Shown here: piece after piece, positions 3,237 to 39,667 of the stretch
Layout: each line of letters opens with the position of its first letter
Position numbering within the stretch: position 1 is the stretch's first letter
Source: a virus
Lineage: Duplodnaviria > Heunggongvirae > Uroviricota > Caudoviricetes
Length of the DNA: 41,111 bases
IMG/VR virus record: IMGVR_UViG_2724679059_000002
Span: 1-41,111 of that record
Reading direction: 5' to 3' (one strand)
Notes under the pieces: model-generated
Databases searched by the model: none
Seen by the model: the letters and a program-made list of their open reading frames with translations, nothing else
What the model was told of the DNA's origin: nothing
Position numbers and translations under genes: made by a program

Positions 3237-5231
3237 CTAATTAACTAATGAAGGGAATGTCGTATTAATTACAAGAACTGTTCCTGACGGATAGCTCTGA
3301 ATTGTAACTTTACCGTTTGAAAGTATATTAATGAGGGCAACCGATGAATCAGTACCTGATGGAATATAAGAAATATCATTCTTTGGTCTAAACCCTTCTG
3401 GCAATACCATAATAACTGTGCCAACAGATGTATTTCCACCTGTTAAAACAGCAGATAAAGTAACAACGCCCTCGGCTGATTTCTGATATGTTCCACTTCT
3501 TGCCTCACCTACAGACCAACCATTTTGCAATATGCCACTCATATCATACTGATTACCTCGCCATGTACTCCATGTATTCTCACTAATCCTTCCAATCCTC
3601 ATTAAGCAAACGCGAGCATTATCTGAAGAATAACCATAATTTTTTTGTACTACTATTCCGTCAACAAATCTATCAACCTGAATAACACCATCAAGAGGCC
3701 AAGAAGCATCATCAGGGTTTGTTCTCCACCATGAAGTCCCCATGTGAAAAGTATTTGGCGGATATGAGCTATTGATGAATTGTATGGAAGAACCATTGTT
3801 AGAAAAAAGGTTGCTACTCCCATTTATAACAGCACACGGTCCATAAATATATTCAAATAATAATTTATGTATCTGTGCGCTAAATGTTGAGTTTGGGTGT
3901 ATTCCCCTTCCATCGCCATAAGGGTCATCAAGCCAGTTACCAGCAGATCCTCTCGAATCCTGCCACATACCGTAAGTATCAAAAAACATACACTTATATT
4001 GTTTTGCTTTGGCTCTAAGTACGGCTGTCAGCTGCTCATACCATTTTTCATCACGTCCGTTTGGTGTGTCTGATGTTGAATTTGGAGACATGATAATAAT
4101 TGATTGCTGGGCAACTGATTTATTATTTCGTAACTTTGAAAGACCTCTATCTAAAGCATCTTTTACTTGATCCAATGTATAACCATAATATGGATCGTTA
4201 ATTCCCCATCGTAAAACAATCAAATCAGCAGCAGAAAAAACAGACCATTCATGATCAATATACCAATTACCCCATTCGTATAGAGTTTTACCTGAATGGC
4301 CTAATGATGTATTTTTTACATCAATAATTCCATACCTCTTTGCATAAAAATCAGCAATAGTTGCTGGTGGCCATAATTCAGAGTTAACACCAACAATCGT
4401 GGAGTCACCAGACCACAAAATATATGTTTTCTGTGATTTATCCACGCCATCTGCTTTTATCATCTTGCTAATAACATAATTAAGATATTGGTCACCAGTT
4501 ACAAAACGGGAACGAGGGTCAGAATACGTTGTTAGTTGAACACCTTCTGTATTAAATACACGCCCCCTGCGTTGCTCAATTTCAACACCATATTCATTTA
4601 ACAATGAAGATACAATTTCATCATCTTTCATCGTAATTACAGTTTGACCGGCTATAGATAAGTTTATGGCTTGCTGTATATTATTCCCTACAGCTCCAGT
4701 TCTTGTAATATCTGGACGCAAAGTACTATCACCACCTTCTATATACCCTTCAAGATAACTTAAAGTTACTGCATCCTGAGGGCTTTCTGGATCTTTAAGA
4801 TTTCTAATCCTGTTATTTAAAGCGTCGTACCAGTTTGCAATACTTGATGGTTTGCAAAGTGCAAGACGAAACAAGCTACGACATTGTTGAATCAGCATCG
4901 TTAGCTTATCAAACGCATCCTCATGCACCTCTGCAAAGAATTTACCCTGATTACGCAGATCTGTTTCCTGAGTAACCGGGAGCTCTCGTGATATAGAGAT
5001 CTGATAACCGTTGGCCAATGCCTTCGACAGTATTATATTACCGCCTCTATAGCCTCCCGCACCAGTGACTGCGTAATCAGTATCAAGAGCCAGCACAGTG
5101 ATATTCTCGTCAAGGTCAATCACCTGCACCACCAGATCAGATTTCTGGAAAATCCTAAAGGTATAAGGGAACGTAGTTGTAACACCGTTACCTGTATATT
5201 CGTTGTGGTCAACTTCGGTTGAGACCGTCAT
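3237..5231 (-). CDS. Tail fibre/tailspike: T7-like N-terminal adaptor domain fused to SGNH/GDSL esterase-like C-terminal domain
   Basis: N-terminus MTVSTEVDHNEYTGNGVTTTFPYTF...TDYAVT aligns by eye with T7 gp17 N-terminus; C-terminal region has WSGDST (GDS motif) and a distal DxxH-like motif (GRGIHP); C-terminal DNA looks AT-rich. Confidence 0.7.
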   Translation of the reverse strand: MTVSTEVDHNEYTGNGVTTTFPYTFRIFQKSDLVVQVIDLDENITVLALDTDYAVTGAGGYRGGNIILSKALANGYQISISRELPVTQETDLRNQGKFFAEVHEDAFDKLTMLIQQCRSLFRLALCKPSSIANWYDALNNRIRNLKDPESPQDAVTLSYLEGYIEGGDSTLRPDITRTGAVGNNIQQAINLSIAGQTVITMKDDEIVSSLLNEYGVEIEQRRGRVFNTEGVQLTTYSDPRSRFVTGDQYLNYVISKMIKADGVDKSQKTYILWSGDSTIVGVNSELWPPATIADFYAKRYGIIDVKNTSLGHSGKTLYEWGNWYIDHEWSVFSAADLIVLRWGINDPYYGYTLDQVKDALDRGLSKLRNNKSVAQQSIIIMSPNSTSDTPNGRDEKWYEQLTAVLRAKAKQYKCMFFDTYGMWQDSRGSAGNWLDDPYGDGRGIHPNSTFSAQIHKLLFEYIYGPCAVINGSSNLFSNNGSSIQFINSSYPPNTFHMGTSWWRTNPDDASWPLDGVIQVDRFVDGIVVQKNYGYSSDNARVCLMRIGRISENTWSTWRGNQYDMSGILQNGWSVGEARSGTYQKSAEGVVTLSAVLTGGNTSVGTVIMVLPEGFRPKNDISYIPSGTDSSVALINILSNGKVTIQSYPSGTVLVINTTFPSLVN

Positions 5232-5730: not shown

Positions 5731-5999
5731 ATTTACATCGCACTCCTCTTGTGCCATAGTAATCGGGCACTGGCAAAATCCAGTGCCGGGATTGGCGTCC
5801 CGATTTACTAAGTGGCGCATACCACGCCAGACGTGGTTTTTTTATGCGTTAAGCACAGCTATATCCGAATTATGGTGGGCTGGGCAGGGGTCCGAAAGGA
5901 CGCCGGTACCACTTAGGCCGGTACGCCAACCTTGTCCAGTTCACCACCAGTAATTGGCGTTGCGGTGGTGATTAAAATCACTAAGTGGAGATAACCACC

Positions 6000-6710
6000 A
6001 TGGCTAATGCTCAAACTGCCATCTTCAAATTTGAATCTGTTAACCCTATCCGTTCCATCATTATCGATGGCCAACCATGGTTTGTAGCCCAAGACGTTTG
6101 TAGTGCGCTGCGTATCCAAAACGTCACCCAAGCACTTGAAAAACTGGATGATGATGAAAGGTCTATGTTCAACATAGGGCATGAACATCGTGCAATTTTT
6201 GACAGCCGAGTAAAAGAGATCAACATCATCTCCGAGTCAGGCCTCTACACACTGATCCTCCGCTGCCGCGACGCAGTGACACCAGGCACTATCCCCTACC
6301 GCTTTCGTAAATGGGTTACAGGTGAGGTTCTTCCTCTGATCCGCCGCACTGGAAGTTACATTAAAAACTCGCTCCCGCAGGAAGAACGCATAAAGATGGT
6401 TGCCGACCAGGTAGCCAACGCCACGGCGTCAGCAGTAATGCAGGCAATGAAGATAGAGAACAAAACCTACAGCGCCCCACTGAAGCCCGGATACCGCAGC
6501 CTGATTCATTCTCCGTCTGGTGTTCTCGGCCTGACGGAGAACTCACTGCTGATGAATCTGCTGAACCAGTTACAGGAAGACGGGCACGACGTATCTGGCG
6601 CGGCGGCGGAGCTGACCACCATGTTCTGCTACATCGTTGGTGTGAGCAAATGCCTGCGTGATATCCAGACTCACGCGGAGTATATCAACGACAAAGCAGG
6701 GTTCTTCTGA
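6000..6710 (+). CDS. Bro-N domain protein (phage antirepressor-like) with C-terminal domain
   Basis: N-terminus FKFESVNPIRSIIIDGQPWFVAQDVCSAL matches the Bro-N pattern; RBS ggag upstream; C-terminal domain paralogous to 5427..5684. Confidence 0.65.
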   Translation: MANAQTAIFKFESVNPIRSIIIDGQPWFVAQDVCSALRIQNVTQALEKLDDDERSMFNIGHEHRAIFDSRVKEINIISESGLYTLILRCRDAVTPGTIPYRFRKWVTGEVLPLIRRTGSYIKNSLPQEERIKMVADQVANATASAVMQAMKIENKTYSAPLKPGYRSLIHSPSGVLGLTENSLLMNLLNQLQEDGHDVSGAAAELTTMFCYIVGVSKCLRDIQTHAEYINDKAGFF

Positions 6711-6850: not shown

Positions 6851-7030
6851 ATGCGAAACGAAAAATTGCAGATGCGTAGAGCGCAAGCTGCCGCAAGACG
6901 TTCTTTCAATGGAAGCGTAGAGTACGTAAAAGTTACTATGACAAAAGATCACGCAAGTCGCGTATCCAGCGCTTTCTTTGATTCTCGTAACAATAAGGAA
7001 AATTATGAGTTTGTCTGCGTCGCAGAATGA
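6851..7030 (+). CDS. Small basic protein, candidate antitoxin-like partner (below the 60-aa track threshold)
   Basis: ATG at 6851 with SD tgagg 7 nt upstream; 59 codons; overlaps the start of the YafO-like gene by 26 nt in a different frame; Arg-rich N-terminus followed by a VKVTMTKDHASRVSSAF segment that could be a ribbon-helix-helix strand-helix. Confidence 0.3.
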   Translation: MRNEKLQMRRAQAAARRSFNGSVEYVKVTMTKDHASRVSSAFFDSRNNKENYEFVCVAE

Positions 7031-7550
7031 TAAAAATCAAATTGTCAGATATAAGGGTCGAGTATTGCATACGCAAAATTTCTCGGCCCTTTGTGCATCT
7101 GATCTTGAGCTGAAGAAAGTATCTGATGCATTTACCCAGTATTGGAAAACGGGATACCATCCATCTCTTGGTAAAGATGCCGCATTTGCTCGTCCGACAG
7201 AAATGCTTAAACTAAATGTCAGGCATACTCATGTCGATAACCAAGACTATATTCCAGAAGATAGTGATAAAAAACACACTGGTAAAAAATCATCCTGGGA
7301 TGCATGGAAAAATATAGCGTCTGTACAAGTAAAATGCATACCAACAAGTGATTGCTTTTTAGTTTATTCGGTAAATCACAATCGTGATGCGCTGGTTATG
7401 TTTTTTGTTGACGCAGATGCTCACAACATAACTGAGCAAGAAGAGTTTAAAGAGGCAGCAATCACTATCAGTTATCAATTCTTTGAGAAAACAAAAACAA
7501 AACCAATGCCTTTAGAAGAAGATCTTTTTTCTGATAAATGGAAGGAATAG
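7005..7550 (+). CDS. YafO-family toxin-like protein (ribosome-dependent mRNA interferase family)
   Basis: Aligns by eye with E. coli YafO: GKDAAFARPTEMLKLNVRHTHV vs GRDALYDDSFTWPLIKFERVAHIHL, and CFLVYSVN...ALVMFFVDADAHN vs AHLVYCQG...AWLLIAILKPEPHK; RBS aagga 5 nt before ATG; AT-rich. Confidence 0.55.
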   Translation: MSLSASQNDKNQIVRYKGRVLHTQNFSALCASDLELKKVSDAFTQYWKTGYHPSLGKDAAFARPTEMLKLNVRHTHVDNQDYIPEDSDKKHTGKKSSWDAWKNIASVQVKCIPTSDCFLVYSVNHNRDALVMFFVDADAHNITEQEEFKEAAITISYQFFEKTKTKPMPLEEDLFSDKWKE

Positions 7551-24731: not shown

Positions 24732-24808
24732 GTGGCATTAGCTCAGTTGGACAGAGCAACCGCCTTCTAAGCGGTTGGTCGCAGGTTCGAATCCTGCATG
24801 CCACGCCA
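24732..24808 (+). tRNA. tRNA-Arg (anticodon UCU), phage-encoded
   Basis: Full cloverleaf: acceptor GUGGCAU/AUGCCAC, D-arm gctc-agttggaca-gagc, anticodon stem accgc/gcggt with loop cuUCUaa, T-arm gcagg-ttcgaat-cctgc, discriminator G and encoded CCA; close to E. coli argU in the arms. Confidence 0.9.
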
Positions 24809-28370: not shown

Positions 28371-28652
28371 TCATTTTTCCTCTTTTGGTTTATGAATCTG
28401 AATGGTCATGCCACTTTGAGTGGTGACTACAATGACAGAACCAGGCTGAAGGCTGTTAAGATTGAATGCTTCGTAAAACGAATCCAATGCCAGTGCTTTT
28501 TTATTCTTTCGGTTCCACCAACGCCATCCCTTGCTACAGGCTACACTGACAATCCACTGTCCACTCCTGTAAGCCATATAAAACCAGATGAGCAAAACCT
28601 GAAGGAATGCTATCCAGTCAATAATCGTATATTTCGCGAAGGAGTCCATCAC
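28371..28652 (-). CDS. Small membrane protein
   Basis: 93 aa, N-terminal hydrophobic helix (IIDWIAFLQVLLIWFYMAY). Confidence 0.4.
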   Translation of the reverse strand: MMDSFAKYTIIDWIAFLQVLLIWFYMAYRSGQWIVSVACSKGWRWWNRKNKKALALDSFYEAFNLNSLQPGSVIVVTTQSGMTIQIHKPKEEK

Positions 28653-29863
28653 TTCACCTCCTGCGGCGGTTCTGGTAGTGGCATCCAGTGGGTTACACCG
28701 CCAATTGGTTCATCGTCGTCGTACTCCAATGCGGCTATATAGAACCCGTCACGACGAGAATAAGAAATCCCGGACATTACAATGCCATCCGAAACAACAA
28801 TAATGTCACCCGTTTCTTCCGGCATTCGCTCACTACAGCTTATCCAACCATCCGGAGTTACCGGAGTTGGTCCATCGAATTCGGGCATGTCAGGACCTTT
28901 TCTGATAGCTTTAGCCAGCTCCAGCGGGTCATCGTAAAGCCAGTCGCCAGTTTGTGGGTGATTTGCTTCTGCAAGCTGCGCAGCCCATTCAAGACCATCT
29001 TTTTGACCTTGGAGATAATCAAGCGGCAACTCTTCATGATTACTTACAGGTTGGCTACCCTGAAGCATGGCAGCGTGGCAGGCATACTCAACGCCCTTAA
29101 CTGCATCTGCGCAGTAGTTATAGCGATTGCATTCCACTAATTTCCGTTTGAGTTTTTCAATTGCCTGCGCGACATCAGCCTGTATTACAGGAACTGGCGG
29201 AACGGCTGTTTGCTCTCGAACGTCATTAGTCGCTATCGGTTCTGCTGCCAACTGACTGGCATATTTGTTAATGGTAACGATAAGCTCTTGCTCAGCCTCA
29301 TCCAGACAATCACCGATACCTCGCCTGTCACCGTCAAAATCATCGAAATCGGCACGAATCTTGGCAACCTTCAGGATTGCGGACAACACCTCACTAGGAA
29401 TTACCGGATAGTTGGTTGACGTTTCCGCGATTTCCCGAAAATTATTGGTTGACGAATTCTTATTTTCCCGAAAGTTTCCGGACTGAAGCATGGCGGCGCG
29501 GCAGGCGTTCCAGCCTCTTACCTCTGCAATAGCGGCAACCGCATCAACCGCGTACATGCTAAGAGGATTAGGCATTGGTTTTTCTTCCGGTACTACTTGC
29601 GCTGGAGGGGCGGCGTAAATACCCTCTATCACTAAATGTTTGCGCTCAAAATCATCTGGCTCTCGATGATATACGTAACTCCAGTCACCAAGGTTATCAT
29701 TGCGCCTGCAACGGAAACCTATCGGCTCGACTTCCAGCGCTGCCAGAGCAATTCGTGCCAGTTCTTCCGCTTCTTCTGCTGGCAGTACAACGTTGCTACC
29801 AGGTCCGTATGTTTCGCGCCACTGCTTGATTGTCAGCAGTCGCTCTTTGGTTATAGTGGTCAT
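28649..29863 (-). CDS. DUF551-domain phage protein with internally repeated N-terminal region
   Basis: C-terminus DGWISCSERMPEE...THWMPLPEPP fits the DUF551 pattern; internal repeat NACRAAMLQSG / YACHAAMLQGS also visible at DNA level (~410 bp apart). Confidence 0.55.
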   Translation of the reverse strand: MTTITKERLLTIKQWRETYGPGSNVVLPAEEAEELARIALAALEVEPIGFRCRRNDNLGDWSYVYHREPDDFERKHLVIEGIYAAPPAQVVPEEKPMPNPLSMYAVDAVAAIAEVRGWNACRAAMLQSGNFRENKNSSTNNFREIAETSTNYPVIPSEVLSAILKVAKIRADFDDFDGDRRGIGDCLDEAEQELIVTINKYASQLAAEPIATNDVREQTAVPPVPVIQADVAQAIEKLKRKLVECNRYNYCADAVKGVEYACHAAMLQGSQPVSNHEELPLDYLQGQKDGLEWAAQLAEANHPQTGDWLYDDPLELAKAIRKGPDMPEFDGPTPVTPDGWISCSERMPEETGDIIVVSDGIVMSGISYSRRDGFYIAALEYDDDEPIGGVTHWMPLPEPPQEVK

Positions 29864-30429: not shown

Positions 30430-31101
30430 TTACTCACCTCCTTTGATGCGAATGCCAGGGGCGCGTGGCACATTAACTTCCACGATGCGCACAGTTGGTT
30501 TGTACATCTCAATCGCAGTCAGCCAGTCAGCGCCAGTCATGCGCTTTTCTGCATCGCCATTAGTCCACTTAACCGGTACACCAATAGCCTTCATCGCGAT
30601 TTCTATTTCCCCGGCAATGGCGCTTTTTCCGCAACCAGTAAAACCAGATACAACGACCAGAACTTCACCTTTGGCTGGTTTTATTTCCCGCGCTTCCAGT
30701 TCTGCTATGCGCTTACTTCCATCCGAGATAACACCTTCGTAATACTCACGCTGCTCGTTGAGTTTTGATTTTGCTTCCTCAAGCTCAACTCTCAGCTTCC
30801 CTACCGTTAGCGCAATATCCTCGTTCTCCTGGTCACGGCGTTTGATGTATTGCTGGTTTCTTTCCCGTTCATCCAGCAACGCCTGCACTACTTCAGGGTT
30901 GAAAGCTGCGATATAACGCGCGTTATTCTCTGCGTTTTCCTGTCCATCAAAGCCGGTCCATTTGATAACGTCTTCACATCGTTTATCACCGGGTGTATGC
31001 ACCGCATATGTACCAGTACCCGACGAAATAAATGCGACCCATTCGCCTTGTGTTGCCTGTTTTGCTATCTCACGCAGTGCCTGATAGTTAAATTCACTCA
31101 C
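30430..31101 (-). CDS. Ead/Ea22-like protein with C-terminal P-loop-like motif
   Basis: N-terminus ALREIAKQATQGEWVA...ENNARYIAAFNPEVVQALLDE resembles the Ead/Ea22 family; C-terminus has VVVSGFTGCGKSAIA (GxxGxGKS). Confidence 0.5.
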   Translation of the reverse strand: MSEFNYQALREIAKQATQGEWVAFISSGTGTYAVHTPGDKRCEDVIKWTGFDGQENAENNARYIAAFNPEVVQALLDERERNQQYIKRRDQENEDIALTVGKLRVELEEAKSKLNEQREYYEGVISDGSKRIAELEAREIKPAKGEVLVVVSGFTGCGKSAIAGEIEIAMKAIGVPVKWTNGDAEKRMTGADWLTAIEMYKPTVRIVEVNVPRAPGIRIKGGE

Positions 31102-31147
31102 TGGTTGCCTCCTGTTAAATTTTCTGTGATATCAGCGTTTACGACGA

Positions 31148-32155
31148 TCATTCACATACACCGGCATAAACACTGCTGCACACCGTCTTATCGTTCGTGC
31201 TCGCCAGTAGGTCAAATTGAGCGCCACCTCGGGTTGTCATTGCCCAGTCGCGATAGGTTTCGATTCCGTAGCTGTCTACGGTAACTACATCTATGCGACG
31301 TTCTGCCCGGCGTGGGTCATGAGTTGACGGGAAAAACGTTGAGTTGCCGCGGCGAGAGCAGGCTGCAACTAATCGTTCCCACTCTGCCACTCTGGCGATT
31401 TCCTCTGGCCAGCGCTGAAAAATTTCCGCCAGTTCAGATTTTCTGGCATGAATGCATGGCATACACCCAACGCGTCTGCATCCTTGTTGGTAGAGTGGGT
31501 TTGGTTTAATCCCGTGACGCCTGGCAATAGCGAAAACATCCTCATGTAGCCAGTTGAGAATCGGACGATAGACATGCAATCCTGGGGTATTGTCCGCATC
31601 CTCCTCCCACACTTGCAGGCGTGCCCTCGATGGCGATTCCTGAGCACGCACACCCTGCCAGGAGATAACTTCGTCATATTCATCAAGCGCAGGTTGCACC
31701 ACCTGAGTGCGCACTGGTTCGTGTTTCAGTTCGAATGTACAGAACCGCGCTTTAGTGCTCGGGAAACGACCTTTCCACATGCACAGGTCAAGAAATGGAT
31801 TTCCGGTTGGGTGGAGGATTTCCAGCGCACGAGCAACACGTTCCGCTGCTTCATCAGGAGTCATTCCGCACTCTGCAACAAGAGATACTGGCCATTTTTC
31901 AGCAATGAATTTGCGCTTACCTTCTATCTGGCGAGTGAAGTCGGCTTTTACGCGGCGAATTGGTCCCAGCTTTTGTTCCAGATAGTCAAGGTACTCCATC
32001 GTTTGTGGGTGTTCGTGCCCCGTGTCAGCAAACACGCGCTCATGCTGTATATCGTTTTCTATGGCATACAAACATTGCGCCAGTGAGTCTTTCCCGCCAG
32101 ACATGGAAACCAAATTAAAAGTGTTTTCTGCTCGGCAGCGCTGAACGATGCTCAC
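31148..32155 (-). CDS. PAPS-reductase-like PP-loop ATP pyrophosphatase family protein
   Basis: PP-loop SGGKDS near the N-terminus; C-terminal Cys cluster GCRRVGCMPC. Confidence 0.6.
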   Translation of the reverse strand: MSIVQRCRAENTFNLVSMSGGKDSLAQCLYAIENDIQHERVFADTGHEHPQTMEYLDYLEQKLGPIRRVKADFTRQIEGKRKFIAEKWPVSLVAECGMTPDEAAERVARALEILHPTGNPFLDLCMWKGRFPSTKARFCTFELKHEPVRTQVVQPALDEYDEVISWQGVRAQESPSRARLQVWEEDADNTPGLHVYRPILNWLHEDVFAIARRHGIKPNPLYQQGCRRVGCMPCIHARKSELAEIFQRWPEEIARVAEWERLVAACSRRGNSTFFPSTHDPRRAERRIDVVTVDSYGIETYRDWAMTTRGGAQFDLLASTNDKTVCSSVYAGVCE

Positions 32156-32607
32156 TGGTTGCCTCCTTTGCGAAGCTGGGCGGCTAACTCATCACATATG
32201 TGCGTCAAAGAGCAAAGTTTGATTGATGGATGTTCGCGCATCATCTCAACCCCCTGCGCCCGTACTTCATCCAGGAAAGCATCGGTGGCTGGGGTGTCTG
32301 ATTGCAGAGACTTTGCTCGATAGTCATTCCACCATCTTGCATACATGGGATTAACTTGCACTCCATCTTTTACGCAATATGCCTGCCCTCCACGGTTGAT
32401 AACCTTGATTTCGTCCATATCGCCAGACTTCAGCCCCGCATTCTCCGCTGCCAGCGCATTAGCACGCACCAGTTGCACTTCCAGTTGCGTTGCCAAATCG
32501 CTGATCAGCTTTGCCACACTGCGCATATCAACGGCACCACATTCTGCTTTCAGTTCCGAAGCCATCTCATGCCCGGCGGCAACTAACCCTTTGATATTAC
32601 TTTCCAT
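32152..32607 (-). CDS. Hypothetical protein
   Basis: 151-aa ORF translationally coupled to the PAPS-reductase-like gene. Confidence 0.4.
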   Translation of the reverse strand: MESNIKGLVAAGHEMASELKAECGAVDMRSVAKLISDLATQLEVQLVRANALAAENAGLKSGDMDEIKVINRGGQAYCVKDGVQVNPMYARWWNDYRAKSLQSDTPATDAFLDEVRAQGVEMMREHPSIKLCSLTHICDELAAQLRKGGNQ

Positions 32608-38757: not shown

Positions 38758-39024
38758 ATGAACAAGGTTTCAATGCGCAGCCCTTCAAAGGTTGTTGCCG
38801 TTAATCCTGCGGCGATAGAGATCGAAAAACGCGCGATTGAAAGAGAGAAAAAAGGGCAGTTCCGCATTGCCGCCCACCTTTGGCTTCAGTGTATGGATGT
38901 TGCTTCTGGTGATGTTGAGCGTGCAAGGATCGCGGTTCGCAGGGACCAATGTATCACAAAAGGTAACGGCCTTCGCCGTGGCGACTATAGCGGCATAGGA
39001 TGTTGTGGGGTGGTTTATGACTAA
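38758..39024 (+). CDS. Small hypothetical protein (possibly ANR-family-like regulator)
   Basis: Start set to ATG 38758 (MNKVSMRSPSKV...); small, conserved Trp/Cys/Arg spacing; frequently seen next to AlpA and int in P4-like modules. Confidence 0.35.
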   Translation: MNKVSMRSPSKVVAVNPAAIEIEKRAIEREKKGQFRIAAHLWLQCMDVASGDVERARIAVRRDQCITKGNGLRRGDYSGIGCCGVVYD

Positions 39025-39667
39025 GAAATACACACTAATCTATGCAGATCCACCCTGGGTATACCGGGACAAAGCCGCAGATGGTAATCGCGGTGCCGGT
39101 TTTAAATATCCGGTTATGAGTGTGCTGGATATCTGCCGCCTTCCTGTGTGGGATTTGGCCGATGAAAACTGTCTGTTGGCCATGTGGTGGGTGCCTACAC
39201 AACCACTCGAAGCACTAAAAGTTGTTGAAGCCTGGGGATTCCGTCTGATGACCATGAAGGGCTTCACGTGGATAAAATGTGGTAGTCGACAACCAGATAA
39301 ACTGGTTATGGGTATGGGACACATGACTCGCGCCAATAGTGAAGATTGCCTGTTTGCAGTAAAGGGAAAATTACCTACGCGCATTAATGCAGGGATCGTT
39401 CAGTCATTTACCGCACCGCGGCTTGAGCATTCAAGAAAACCAGATGTCGTTCGTGAAAAACTTGTGCAATTGTTAGGCGATGTTTCTCGCATTGAACTGT
39501 TCGCCCGCCAGACGTCTCATGGCTTCGATGTTTGGGGTAATCAGTGCGAAGACCCGGCAGTGCAACTACACCCTGGATACGCGTTGGATATTGCCGGATT
39601 AACAAATGCATTCAGCAATGCTCCGCTGTCACCAACAGACAACCAGGGGCGGGAGCGTGCAGCATGA
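39017..39667 (+). CDS. MT-A70 family N6-adenine DNA methyltransferase
   Basis: Catalytic motif DPPW (YADPPWVYRD); ~216 aa. Confidence 0.8.
   Translation: MTKKYTLIYADPPWVYRDKAADGNRGAGFKYPVMSVLDICRLPVWDLADENCLLAMWWVPTQPLEALKVVEAWGFRLMTMKGFTWIKCGSRQPDKLVMGMGHMTRANSEDCLFAVKGKLPTRINAGIVQSFTAPRLEHSRKPDVVREKLVQLLGDVSRIELFARQTSHGFDVWGNQCEDPAVQLHPGYALDIAGLTNAFSNAPLSPTDNQGRERAA

Follow-up and report, generated by a model that had tools for sequence, protein, structure and literature searches.

Between two ordinary early genes of a temperate Escherichia coli phage, known as a 41,111-nt record (IMG/VR IMGVR_UViG_2724679059_000002, positions 1 to 41,111, called the window below), lies a gene for a PP-loop protein of 335 amino acids (aa) that resembles phosphoadenosine phosphosulfate (PAPS) reductases. 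It is preceded by a gene for a 151-aa protein and followed by one for a 223-aa Ead/Ea22-like protein with a GxxGxGKS motif. The original prediction, made from the sequence alone, saw in these three translationally coupled open reading frames (ORFs) a possible modification or anti-restriction module complementing the MT-A70 methyltransferase of the same phage. Two questions are raised by this locus: do the three genes belong together, and what could the PAPS-reductase-like (hereafter PAPS-like) gene be for? As detailed below, the PAPS-like gene proved to be a single-gene cassette, functionally untied to its two neighbours. The best explanation of the whole, which we hold with about as much confidence as reserve, is that it is a solitary cassette of the clade of phage 186 Orf83/84, encoding a sulfurtransferase of the DndC/SspD type with an early counter-defence role.

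A single-gene cassette at a 17-nt linker

All three ORFs were found where expected on the minus strand (Table 1). The extent of the mobile unit was given by L011, an otherwise unrelated phage contig of IMG/VR, which is 98.7% identical in nucleotide sequence to the window over the cassette only. In the window, a 17-nt sequence, AGGAGGCAACCAGTGAG, occurs as a direct repeat: two exact copies are present versus 0.01 expected by chance, and the spacing between them (1054 nt) is the length of the cassette. The pair is also found in L011, with identical spacing. In phage phiV10, which is without the PAPS-like gene, there is a single copy, located exactly at the junction of the eae-like gene and p47. 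The P2-like version of the PAPS-like gene has, as its ribosome-binding site, a copy of this sequence that differs at one position, and the gene copies carried by P2-like prophages are 97.5% identical over a stretch that begins 15 nt before the start codon and runs to the stop. The PAPS-like gene is thus a single-gene cassette inserted in a replication-proximal early operon at a 17-bp linker made of a ribosome-binding site and a start codon. The repeat looks like a linker for modular exchange, and recombination at this short sequence would be the simplest account of the insertion.

The genomic context was then compared among the 80 closest IMG/VR relatives of the gene (above 70% identity). The replicase A gene of P2/186 type lies directly downstream in about 66 of them, and none of the 80 has the Eae-like or Ea22 neighbours of the window. 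Two P2-like prophages of E. coli carry a 98%-identical copy between gpA-ParM-StbB (ParM and StbB being partition genes) and the portal gene, a position (gpA-gpQ) that Rousset et al. (PMC9122126) defined as the P2 defence hotspot. These hotspot copies, 97.5-98% identical to the window gene, are at positions 9001-9957 of L003 (E. coli GDSC2BY4G) and 8001-9008 of L009; the former is recorded as a pseudogene, interrupted by an internal stop.

The neighbours are similarly independent of the cassette. The Ea22-like protein encoded after the 99%-identical PAPS-like copy of L011 is without the P-loop module, and phiV10 p48, the C-terminal half of which is identical to that of the window protein, shows that the 'P-loop' module exists without the PP-loop gene. 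The three-gene module was rejected on the basis of these comparisons (80 relatives, L011 and phiV10): the 151-aa and Ea22-like genes are ordinary mosaic neighbours and not partners of the PAPS-like gene, and their apparent association with it is an accident of mosaic gene order. As to translational coupling, it stood at the first junction, where the 151-aa gene stops within a GTGA that also holds the GTG start of the PAPS-like gene, and failed at the second, where a 46-nt spacer separates the PAPS-like and Ea22 genes and the latter has its own Shine-Dalgarno sequence. Further on, the Ea22 stop codon and the ATG that follows have 1 nt in common.

The 335-aa protein and its family

That the 335-aa protein is a PAPS-reductase-like PP-loop enzyme was borne out by profile search. 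The PF01507 (PAPS_reduct) model matched residues 15-236 with an E-value of 2.5e-37 and a score of 129 bits, against a gathering cut-off of 22.5; the fold is of the Rossmann-like alpha/beta kind, and the closest solved structures are PAPS and adenosine phosphosulfate (APS) reductases. Phage protein profiles placed it in the Orf83/84-type clade (E = 2.7e-111 for PHROG 15238 and 5e-84 for PHROG 424). It is 82% identical to Orf83/84 of phage 186 (NP_052288) over 333 aa, i.e. the full length, with a like PP-loop, cysteine set and size, and 84% identical to the products of genes of P2-like phages. The orthologs in P2-like prophages, with copies 98% identical, are labelled 'phosphoadenosine phosphosulfate reductase family protein'. 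The difference is in location: the 186/P2 gene is found just upstream of the rolling-circle replicase A gene or in the gpA-gpQ hotspot, whereas that of the window lies between the Eae-like and Ea22-like genes. According to the phage 186 record, Orf83/84 is of 'unknown function; not essential', and its translation is coupled to that of replicase A. Since an exact-sequence lookup of the 335-aa protein returned no record, P0001, a cluster of 241 sequences annotated in E. coli and 98% identical to it, was used as a stand-in. At the DNA level, a near-identical copy of the gene was seen in only one of 5426 complete E. coli genomes.

Conservation was measured on 119 family representatives clustered at 50% identity. 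Each position of the PP-loop SGGKDS (residues 19-24) is kept in 88-94% of them. Two further sets of residues stand out. The first one comprises Cys139 (100%), which remains invariant when lambda NinC is included in the alignment, together with Cys231 (100%) and Cys234 (97%), both within the GCMPC stretch that aligns with GCEPC of the Pseudomonas aeruginosa APS reductase 2goy. The second one is at the C-terminal end: C326 (82%), C334 (97%) and E335 (90%). The C-terminal cysteine cluster noted in the original prediction is borne out by the cysteines at 231/234 and 326/334. The sulfonucleotide-binding motif WxGxRxxES..R is also conserved in the family. The region of the C-terminal dyad is predicted by AlphaFold2 with a confidence score (pLDDT) below 50, which fits a flexible tail; the last 66 residues are without a confident model.

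Purifying selection on the gene is strong, with a ratio of nonsynonymous to synonymous substitution rates (dN/dS) of 0.03-0.04 against three relatives. The ORF is intact and kept by selection, and belongs to the phage Orf83/84 clade. A profile search among 1.84 billion representatives gave 619 clusters at 50% identity (E ≤ 1e-30), almost all made of stand-alone proteins of 300-380 aa; among the 150 best representatives, the only domain fusion was a weak one with a methyltransferase (P0395, E = 2.7e-4). Lambda NinC, a distant paralog of the clade, is annotated as a PAPS reductase and encoded in the nin region, right after O, P, ren and NinB. It shares the PAPS-reductase fold, the SGG of the PP-loop and the counterparts of C139, C231, C234, C326 and C334, and differs by its length (290 aa), by another C-terminal half and by an identity of 25%, limited to the N-terminal 200 residues; it is likewise uncharacterised. 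All of these proteins are adenine-nucleotide alpha-hydrolases of the PAPS-reductase fold. The Orf83/84 family is old, widespread in phages and uncharacterised, and the window gene adds one member to it; a literature search found no characterised function for 186 Orf83/84 or NinC.

Two observations on other members can be added. The homolog of E. coli phage phi458 is annotated as a transcriptional regulator. In two Pseudomonas prophages (L099 6003-6545; L100 1027-1569), a 47%-identical homolog is directly followed by a DUF4406 protein, and a gene for a ParB-type helix-turn-helix protein is found about 2 kb upstream.

Neighbouring genes and the early operon

The window holds nearly all of a temperate E. 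coli podophage, phiV10/epsilon15-like (Uetakevirus-type), and phages HEMP4, TL-2011b and ZX5 are 97-98% identical to its positions 20000-41111. The three ORFs belong to a long early operon, the order of which is Cro-like, O-like, P, DUF1064, 151-aa, 335-aa, Ea22-like, a string of small mosaic genes and the small terminase subunit (Table 1). A consensus scan of the minus strand between 33100 and 30250 listed no promoter- or terminator-like site. Because no such site lies on the operon strand within the cluster, the three ORFs are most simply read as early lytic genes. The MT-A70 gene is about 7 kb away from the cassette, in the divergent early operon; an adenine methylase gene is present in close relatives that are without most of the three-ORF region, PAPS-like gene included (TL-2011b covers 15% only of that region). 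A physical link between the cassette and MT-A70 was accordingly ruled out.

Table 1. Position of the features discussed in the text, given in window coordinates
Feature	Position	Strand	Remarks
Mobile cassette, extent	31069..32191	minus	98.7% nucleotide identity to the otherwise unrelated phage contig L011
17-nt direct repeat AGGAGGCAACCAGTGAG, upstream copy	32151..32167	minus	Shine-Dalgarno, GTG start and stop codon of the 151-aa gene
17-nt direct repeat AGGAGGCAACCAGTGAG, downstream copy	31097..31113	minus	At the Ea22 start
335-aa PAPS-reductase-fold PP-loop protein (phage 186 Orf83/84 type)	31148..32155	minus	GTG start
PP-loop SGGKDS, residues 19-24	32084..32101	minus	ATP pyrophosphatase signature, read from sequence
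C231-M-P-C234 (GCxPC; GCMPC, residues 230-234)	31454..31465	minus	Counterpart of the CxxC of APS reductase, which binds an iron-sulfur (Fe-S) cluster
Cys139 (F-C-T...L-K motif)	31739..31741	minus	Proposed third Fe-S ligand
C-terminal cysteine dyad C326...C334-E335-stop (...CSSVYAGVCE)	31154..31180	minus	From sequence and conservation
151-aa Eae-like mosaic protein	32152..32607	minus	PHROG 492, function unknown
223-aa Ead/Ea22-like protein	30430..31101	minus	N-terminal Ea22 domain, long coiled coil, C-terminal module of ~70 aa, Walker-A/Walker-B-like
Walker-A-type GFTGCGKS, residues 153-160 of the Ea22-like protein	30622..30645	minus	Read from sequence
Cro-like gene	35275-35045	minus	Start of the long early operon
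DnaT-domain O-like gene	34721-33879	minus	Early operon
Lambda-P homolog	33907-33131	minus	Early operon
DUF1064 gene	33013-32669	minus	Early operon, before the 151-aa ORF
Small terminase subunit	27662-26988	minus	After the string of small mosaic genes downstream of the three ORFs
MT-A70 gene	39005-39667	plus	Divergent early operon, ~7 kb from the PAPS-like cassette

The 151-aa protein had been called unknown and stays so: a Pfam scan gave no match. Its 60 N-terminal residues are nearly identical to those of the eae-like p46 of phiV10, and the two proteins have a common ...RKGGNQ end. The identity of the Ead/Ea22-like protein was confirmed by a match to PF13935 (Ead_Ea22) over residues 2-136 (E = 8.8e-43, 146.6 bits against a cut-off of 27), and so was its GxxGxGKS motif. 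It is 75% identical to phiV10 p48. In the AlphaFold2 model, a helix spans residues 69-138 with a pLDDT above 90, and the C-terminal module has values of 33-64.

The GxxGxGKS motif, presented earlier as unusual, turned out to be common. The module that contains it (about 70 aa, residues ~145-210, positions 30472-30669) was found in 490 protein clusters, mostly Ea22-like and from Enterobacteriaceae, some of the proteins being named 'ATP-binding protein' by NCBI; that of the phiV10 Ea22 protein is 98.8% identical to the window module. In prophages of enterobacteria the module is attached to Ea22 coiled coils. Elsewhere it is joined to unrelated N-termini, in gp37 of Burkholderia phage BcepC6B and in Ralstonia and Burkholderia jumbo phages (L091, L092, L093, L094). 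Homologs of the module in proteins of Burkholderia and Ralstonia phages are 36-47% identical, and GxxGxGKSA is invariant in them. A strand of the hhhhE type, VRIVE, in which E208 is invariant, could be a Walker B. Profile matches to PDB entries are limited to the Walker-A strand-loop-helix, and all Pfam NTPase matches of the window module are below cut-off. The best of them, APS_kinase (30433-30681; E = 0.012, 16 bits against 21.1), is a tempting match beside a PAPS-reductase-like gene, but was taken as most likely due to chance since it is below cut-off and restricted to the Walker-A region. The module is too short for a standard NTPase; it may be a minimal P-loop unit.

A few other features of the window were recorded. 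Downstream of the three ORFs, a 404-aa mosaic protein (28649-29863, minus) combines segments of PHROGs 60, 14306 and 5117 with a C-terminal DUF551 domain; L011, L012 and L013 have short pieces of this protein downstream of their PAPS-like cassette. The tail-fibre region (3237-5231, minus) has a GC content of 0.37-0.38 versus about 0.50 elsewhere; its ORF (664 aa) encodes an N-terminus like that of the T7 tail fibre together with a GDSL esterase domain, and was probably acquired horizontally as a tail fibre that modifies the receptor. Adjoining this region are a gene for a Bro-N domain protein (5985-6710, plus) and a YafO-toxin-like ORF (6978-7550, plus; E = 1.2e-5, right at the Pfam cut-off), both possible moron or toxin genes. 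Finally, a tRNA-Arg gene (anticodon TCT; 24732-24808, plus) is embedded among the structural genes, and those around it are on the other strand.

What the cassette protein may do

Counter-defence through nucleic-acid modification is the leading reading, at a moderate to low level of confidence. It leads because DNA methyltransferase genes are enriched in the vicinity of the family and because anti-Dnd and Aca-operon cases have been published; to that extent the modification or anti-restriction role proposed earlier is the best one available, for the PAPS-like gene alone and not for a module of three. Genes for replication and recombination make up most of the surroundings of family members, and the commonest annotated neighbour is a DNA methyltransferase. 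Among eight hand-picked annotated phages of other genera, seven have one within three genes, and in phiE125, Rivra and Dolphis the methyltransferase gene and the PAPS-like gene overlap or abut. In an unbiased set of 80 diverse IMG/VR loci, 18 of the 295 nearest ORFs with a length of 100 aa or more were DNA methylases, which corresponds to roughly one locus in five. The argument from adjacency was downgraded because of this fall from seven in eight to about one in five: by rough estimate, adjacency is well above chance and far from universal.

The only relative with an experimental counter-defence phenotype is the PAPS-Dam protein of Vibrio podophage p0018 (Piel et al., bioRxiv 10.1101/2021.05.05.442762), a 479-aa fusion in which a phage PAPS-reductase domain is linked to a DNA methyltransferase, whereas the window gene is solitary; with one co-transferred gene, it gave resistance to the host Dnd system. 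PAPS reductases are also known to occur in Aca-regulated anti-defence operons (PMC13551039).

A second line of comparison is with DndC, SspD and BrxP, the PAPS-reductase-domain subunits that insert sulfur in phosphorothioate systems. The 335-aa protein has the PP-loop signature in common with them and, likely, a three-cysteine Fe-S site plus a dyad. For DndC, the published description (PMC10853773) is that of a PP-loop ATPase in which three cysteines carry a 4Fe-4S cluster, with a cysteine dyad in addition. The best match of the 335-aa protein among PADLOC models was SspD (E = 2.8e-24, positions 70-202 of 277), followed by BrxP (1e-13, positions 212-335 of 779) and by DndC (4e-8, over about 80 residues); on the DndC equivalog TIGR03183 it scored 22.1 bits against a cut-off of 290.4. 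As far as such models can tell, it is neither DndC nor a full-length SspD or BrxP. Those three are genes of defence islands, whereas this one is phage-encoded. No DndD (an ABC ATPase) or DndE partner was found among the scanned genes adjoining the cassette, in phage 186 or in the P2-like L009, and no SspC/BrxC ATPase or SspB/DUF4007 targeting partner near the window gene.

A three-step mechanism can be proposed from the conservation of the active site in the 119 representatives, the alignment with the CxxC of APS reductase and the DndC-like layout. The intact SGGKDS loop would bind ATP and adenylate the substrate, with release of pyrophosphate; C139, C231 and C234 would bind an Fe-S cluster in the manner of APS reductase, DndC and TtuA; C326 and C334, on the flexible tail, would take sulfur, presumably from host IscS, and deliver it. 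The protein would then be an ATP-dependent sulfurtransferase of the DndC/SspD type, made early in lytic growth. The substrate is likely a nucleic acid because the position of the gene and its neighbours point there: the target could be replicating phage DNA, or nucleotides, or RNA, and the most plausible outcome would be escape of the phage from host restriction or phosphorothioate-based immunity. In its most explicit version, about which we are rather doubtful, the solitary PP-loop/Fe-S enzyme would draw on IscS-type sulfur of the host, or hijack host Dnd/Ssp subunits, and place a sulfur mark (a phosphorothioate or a thiolated base) on replicating phage DNA or on nucleotide or tRNA pools, leading to escape from modification-dependent immunity.

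Several points weigh against counter-defence by sulfur modification. A methyltransferase is adjacent in only about one fifth of the diverse loci, and in neither the window nor the P2/186 subclade. The only experimental anti-Dnd case, that of Vibrio, concerns a distant fusion protein, and the share of its PAPS domain in the phenotype was not separated from that of the co-transferred gene (bioRxiv 10.1101/2021.05.05.442762). Every phosphorothioate system known depends on two partners, a P-loop ATPase and a subunit that targets DNA (PMC12914056), and no phosphorothioate partner gene travels with the PAPS-like gene. In addition, the clade member of phage 186 is given as not essential and of unknown function, the Fe-S assignment comes from alignment only, and the 66 C-terminal residues, dyad included, are those that were not modelled with confidence.

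Four other explanations were weighed against it. A regulatory or replication-linked role, which we consider unlikely, would be either the tuning of replication initiation or a co-activation like that of IbrA, a PAPS-reductase-like protein that reportedly co-activates the eib genes of a prophage together with the ParB-like IbrB. This role would suit the conserved position directly upstream of replicase A in P2/186-like phages, with the translational coupling seen in 186, and the replication-proximal location in lambda (NinC), phiE125 and the window; ParB-like neighbours exist in phiE125 and in Riah-like phages, and there is the annotation of the phi458 homolog. However, no DNA-binding domain was detected in the 335-aa protein, its conserved catalytic motifs argue for an enzyme, and the gene is dispensable for growth of 186. 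A prophage-borne function in defence or superinfection exclusion for the benefit of the lysogen, for instance as a component marking host or prophage DNA, appears improbable. The early lytic location in the window, in 186 and in most relatives, as well as the coupling to replicase A in 186, do not favour it, nor does the consensus scan, which listed no promoter-like site of its own on the cluster strand; moreover, an effector or restriction partner is absent and one of the hotspot copies is a pseudogene. Such a function would nevertheless account for the 98%-identical copies at the P2 defence hotspot between gpA-ParM-StbB and the portal gene (PMC9122126), and for the partial matches to the SspD, BrxP and DndC defence models.

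The annotation 'cysH', borne by many phage members, leads to another explanation, namely that the protein is a true assimilatory PAPS or APS reductase, an auxiliary metabolic gene product raising host sulfate assimilation during infection. The PF01507 domain, the nearest solved structures, the conserved WxGxRxxES..R motif, a cysteine set like that of Fe-S APS reductases and the presence of a cysteine in the C-terminal tail are all in line with it. True CysH enzymes, on the other hand, have a degenerate PP-loop and a catalytic cysteine in a C-terminal ECGLH motif, and APS reductases have a CC pair together with ECGLH. The 335-aa protein keeps the canonical SGGKDS where 2goy has SGAEDV, has the single Cys139 and ends in ...GVCE. 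Its scores are far under cut-off for all three models: 64.8 bits versus 154 for the NCBIfam CysH model (PRK02090), 42.4 versus 254 for TIGR02057 and 52 versus 235 for APS_reductase. Besides, the surroundings of the gene are those of replication, recombination and DNA methylation rather than of metabolism. Judged by motifs and scores, the protein is not a CysH equivalog, and we regard this metabolic role as very unlikely. We give hardly any credit to the last explanation, closest to the original prediction, in which the 151-aa protein, the PP-loop enzyme and the Ea22 P-loop would act together as a minimal phosphorothioation-like system made of a PAPS-reductase domain plus a P-loop NTPase. Known phosphorothioate systems do pair two such proteins (PMC12914056), the three genes are adjacent in one operon, and the Walker-A of the Ea22 module is invariant in distant homologs. 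But the pairing is absent from all 80 close relatives, L011 and phiV10 each dissociate the module from the PP-loop gene, and the module is short, of low-confidence fold and matched by NTPase models around the Walker-A only.

To conclude, the significance of these observations lies in the family as a whole rather than in the locus, for which they are mostly a clarification. The family is large and strongly constrained, and moves as a single gene between unrelated phages; its members in textbook phages, lambda NinC and 186 Orf83/84, have been without an assigned function for decades, and the motif and cut-off comparisons made here argue against the usual 'cysH' label. Identification of the substrate would change many phage annotations and might reveal a simple enzymatic route to counter-defence or modification. 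If the sulfur-mark reading is true, NinC and Orf84 of lambda, 186 and the P2-like phages would represent a widespread family of one-gene counter-defence systems.

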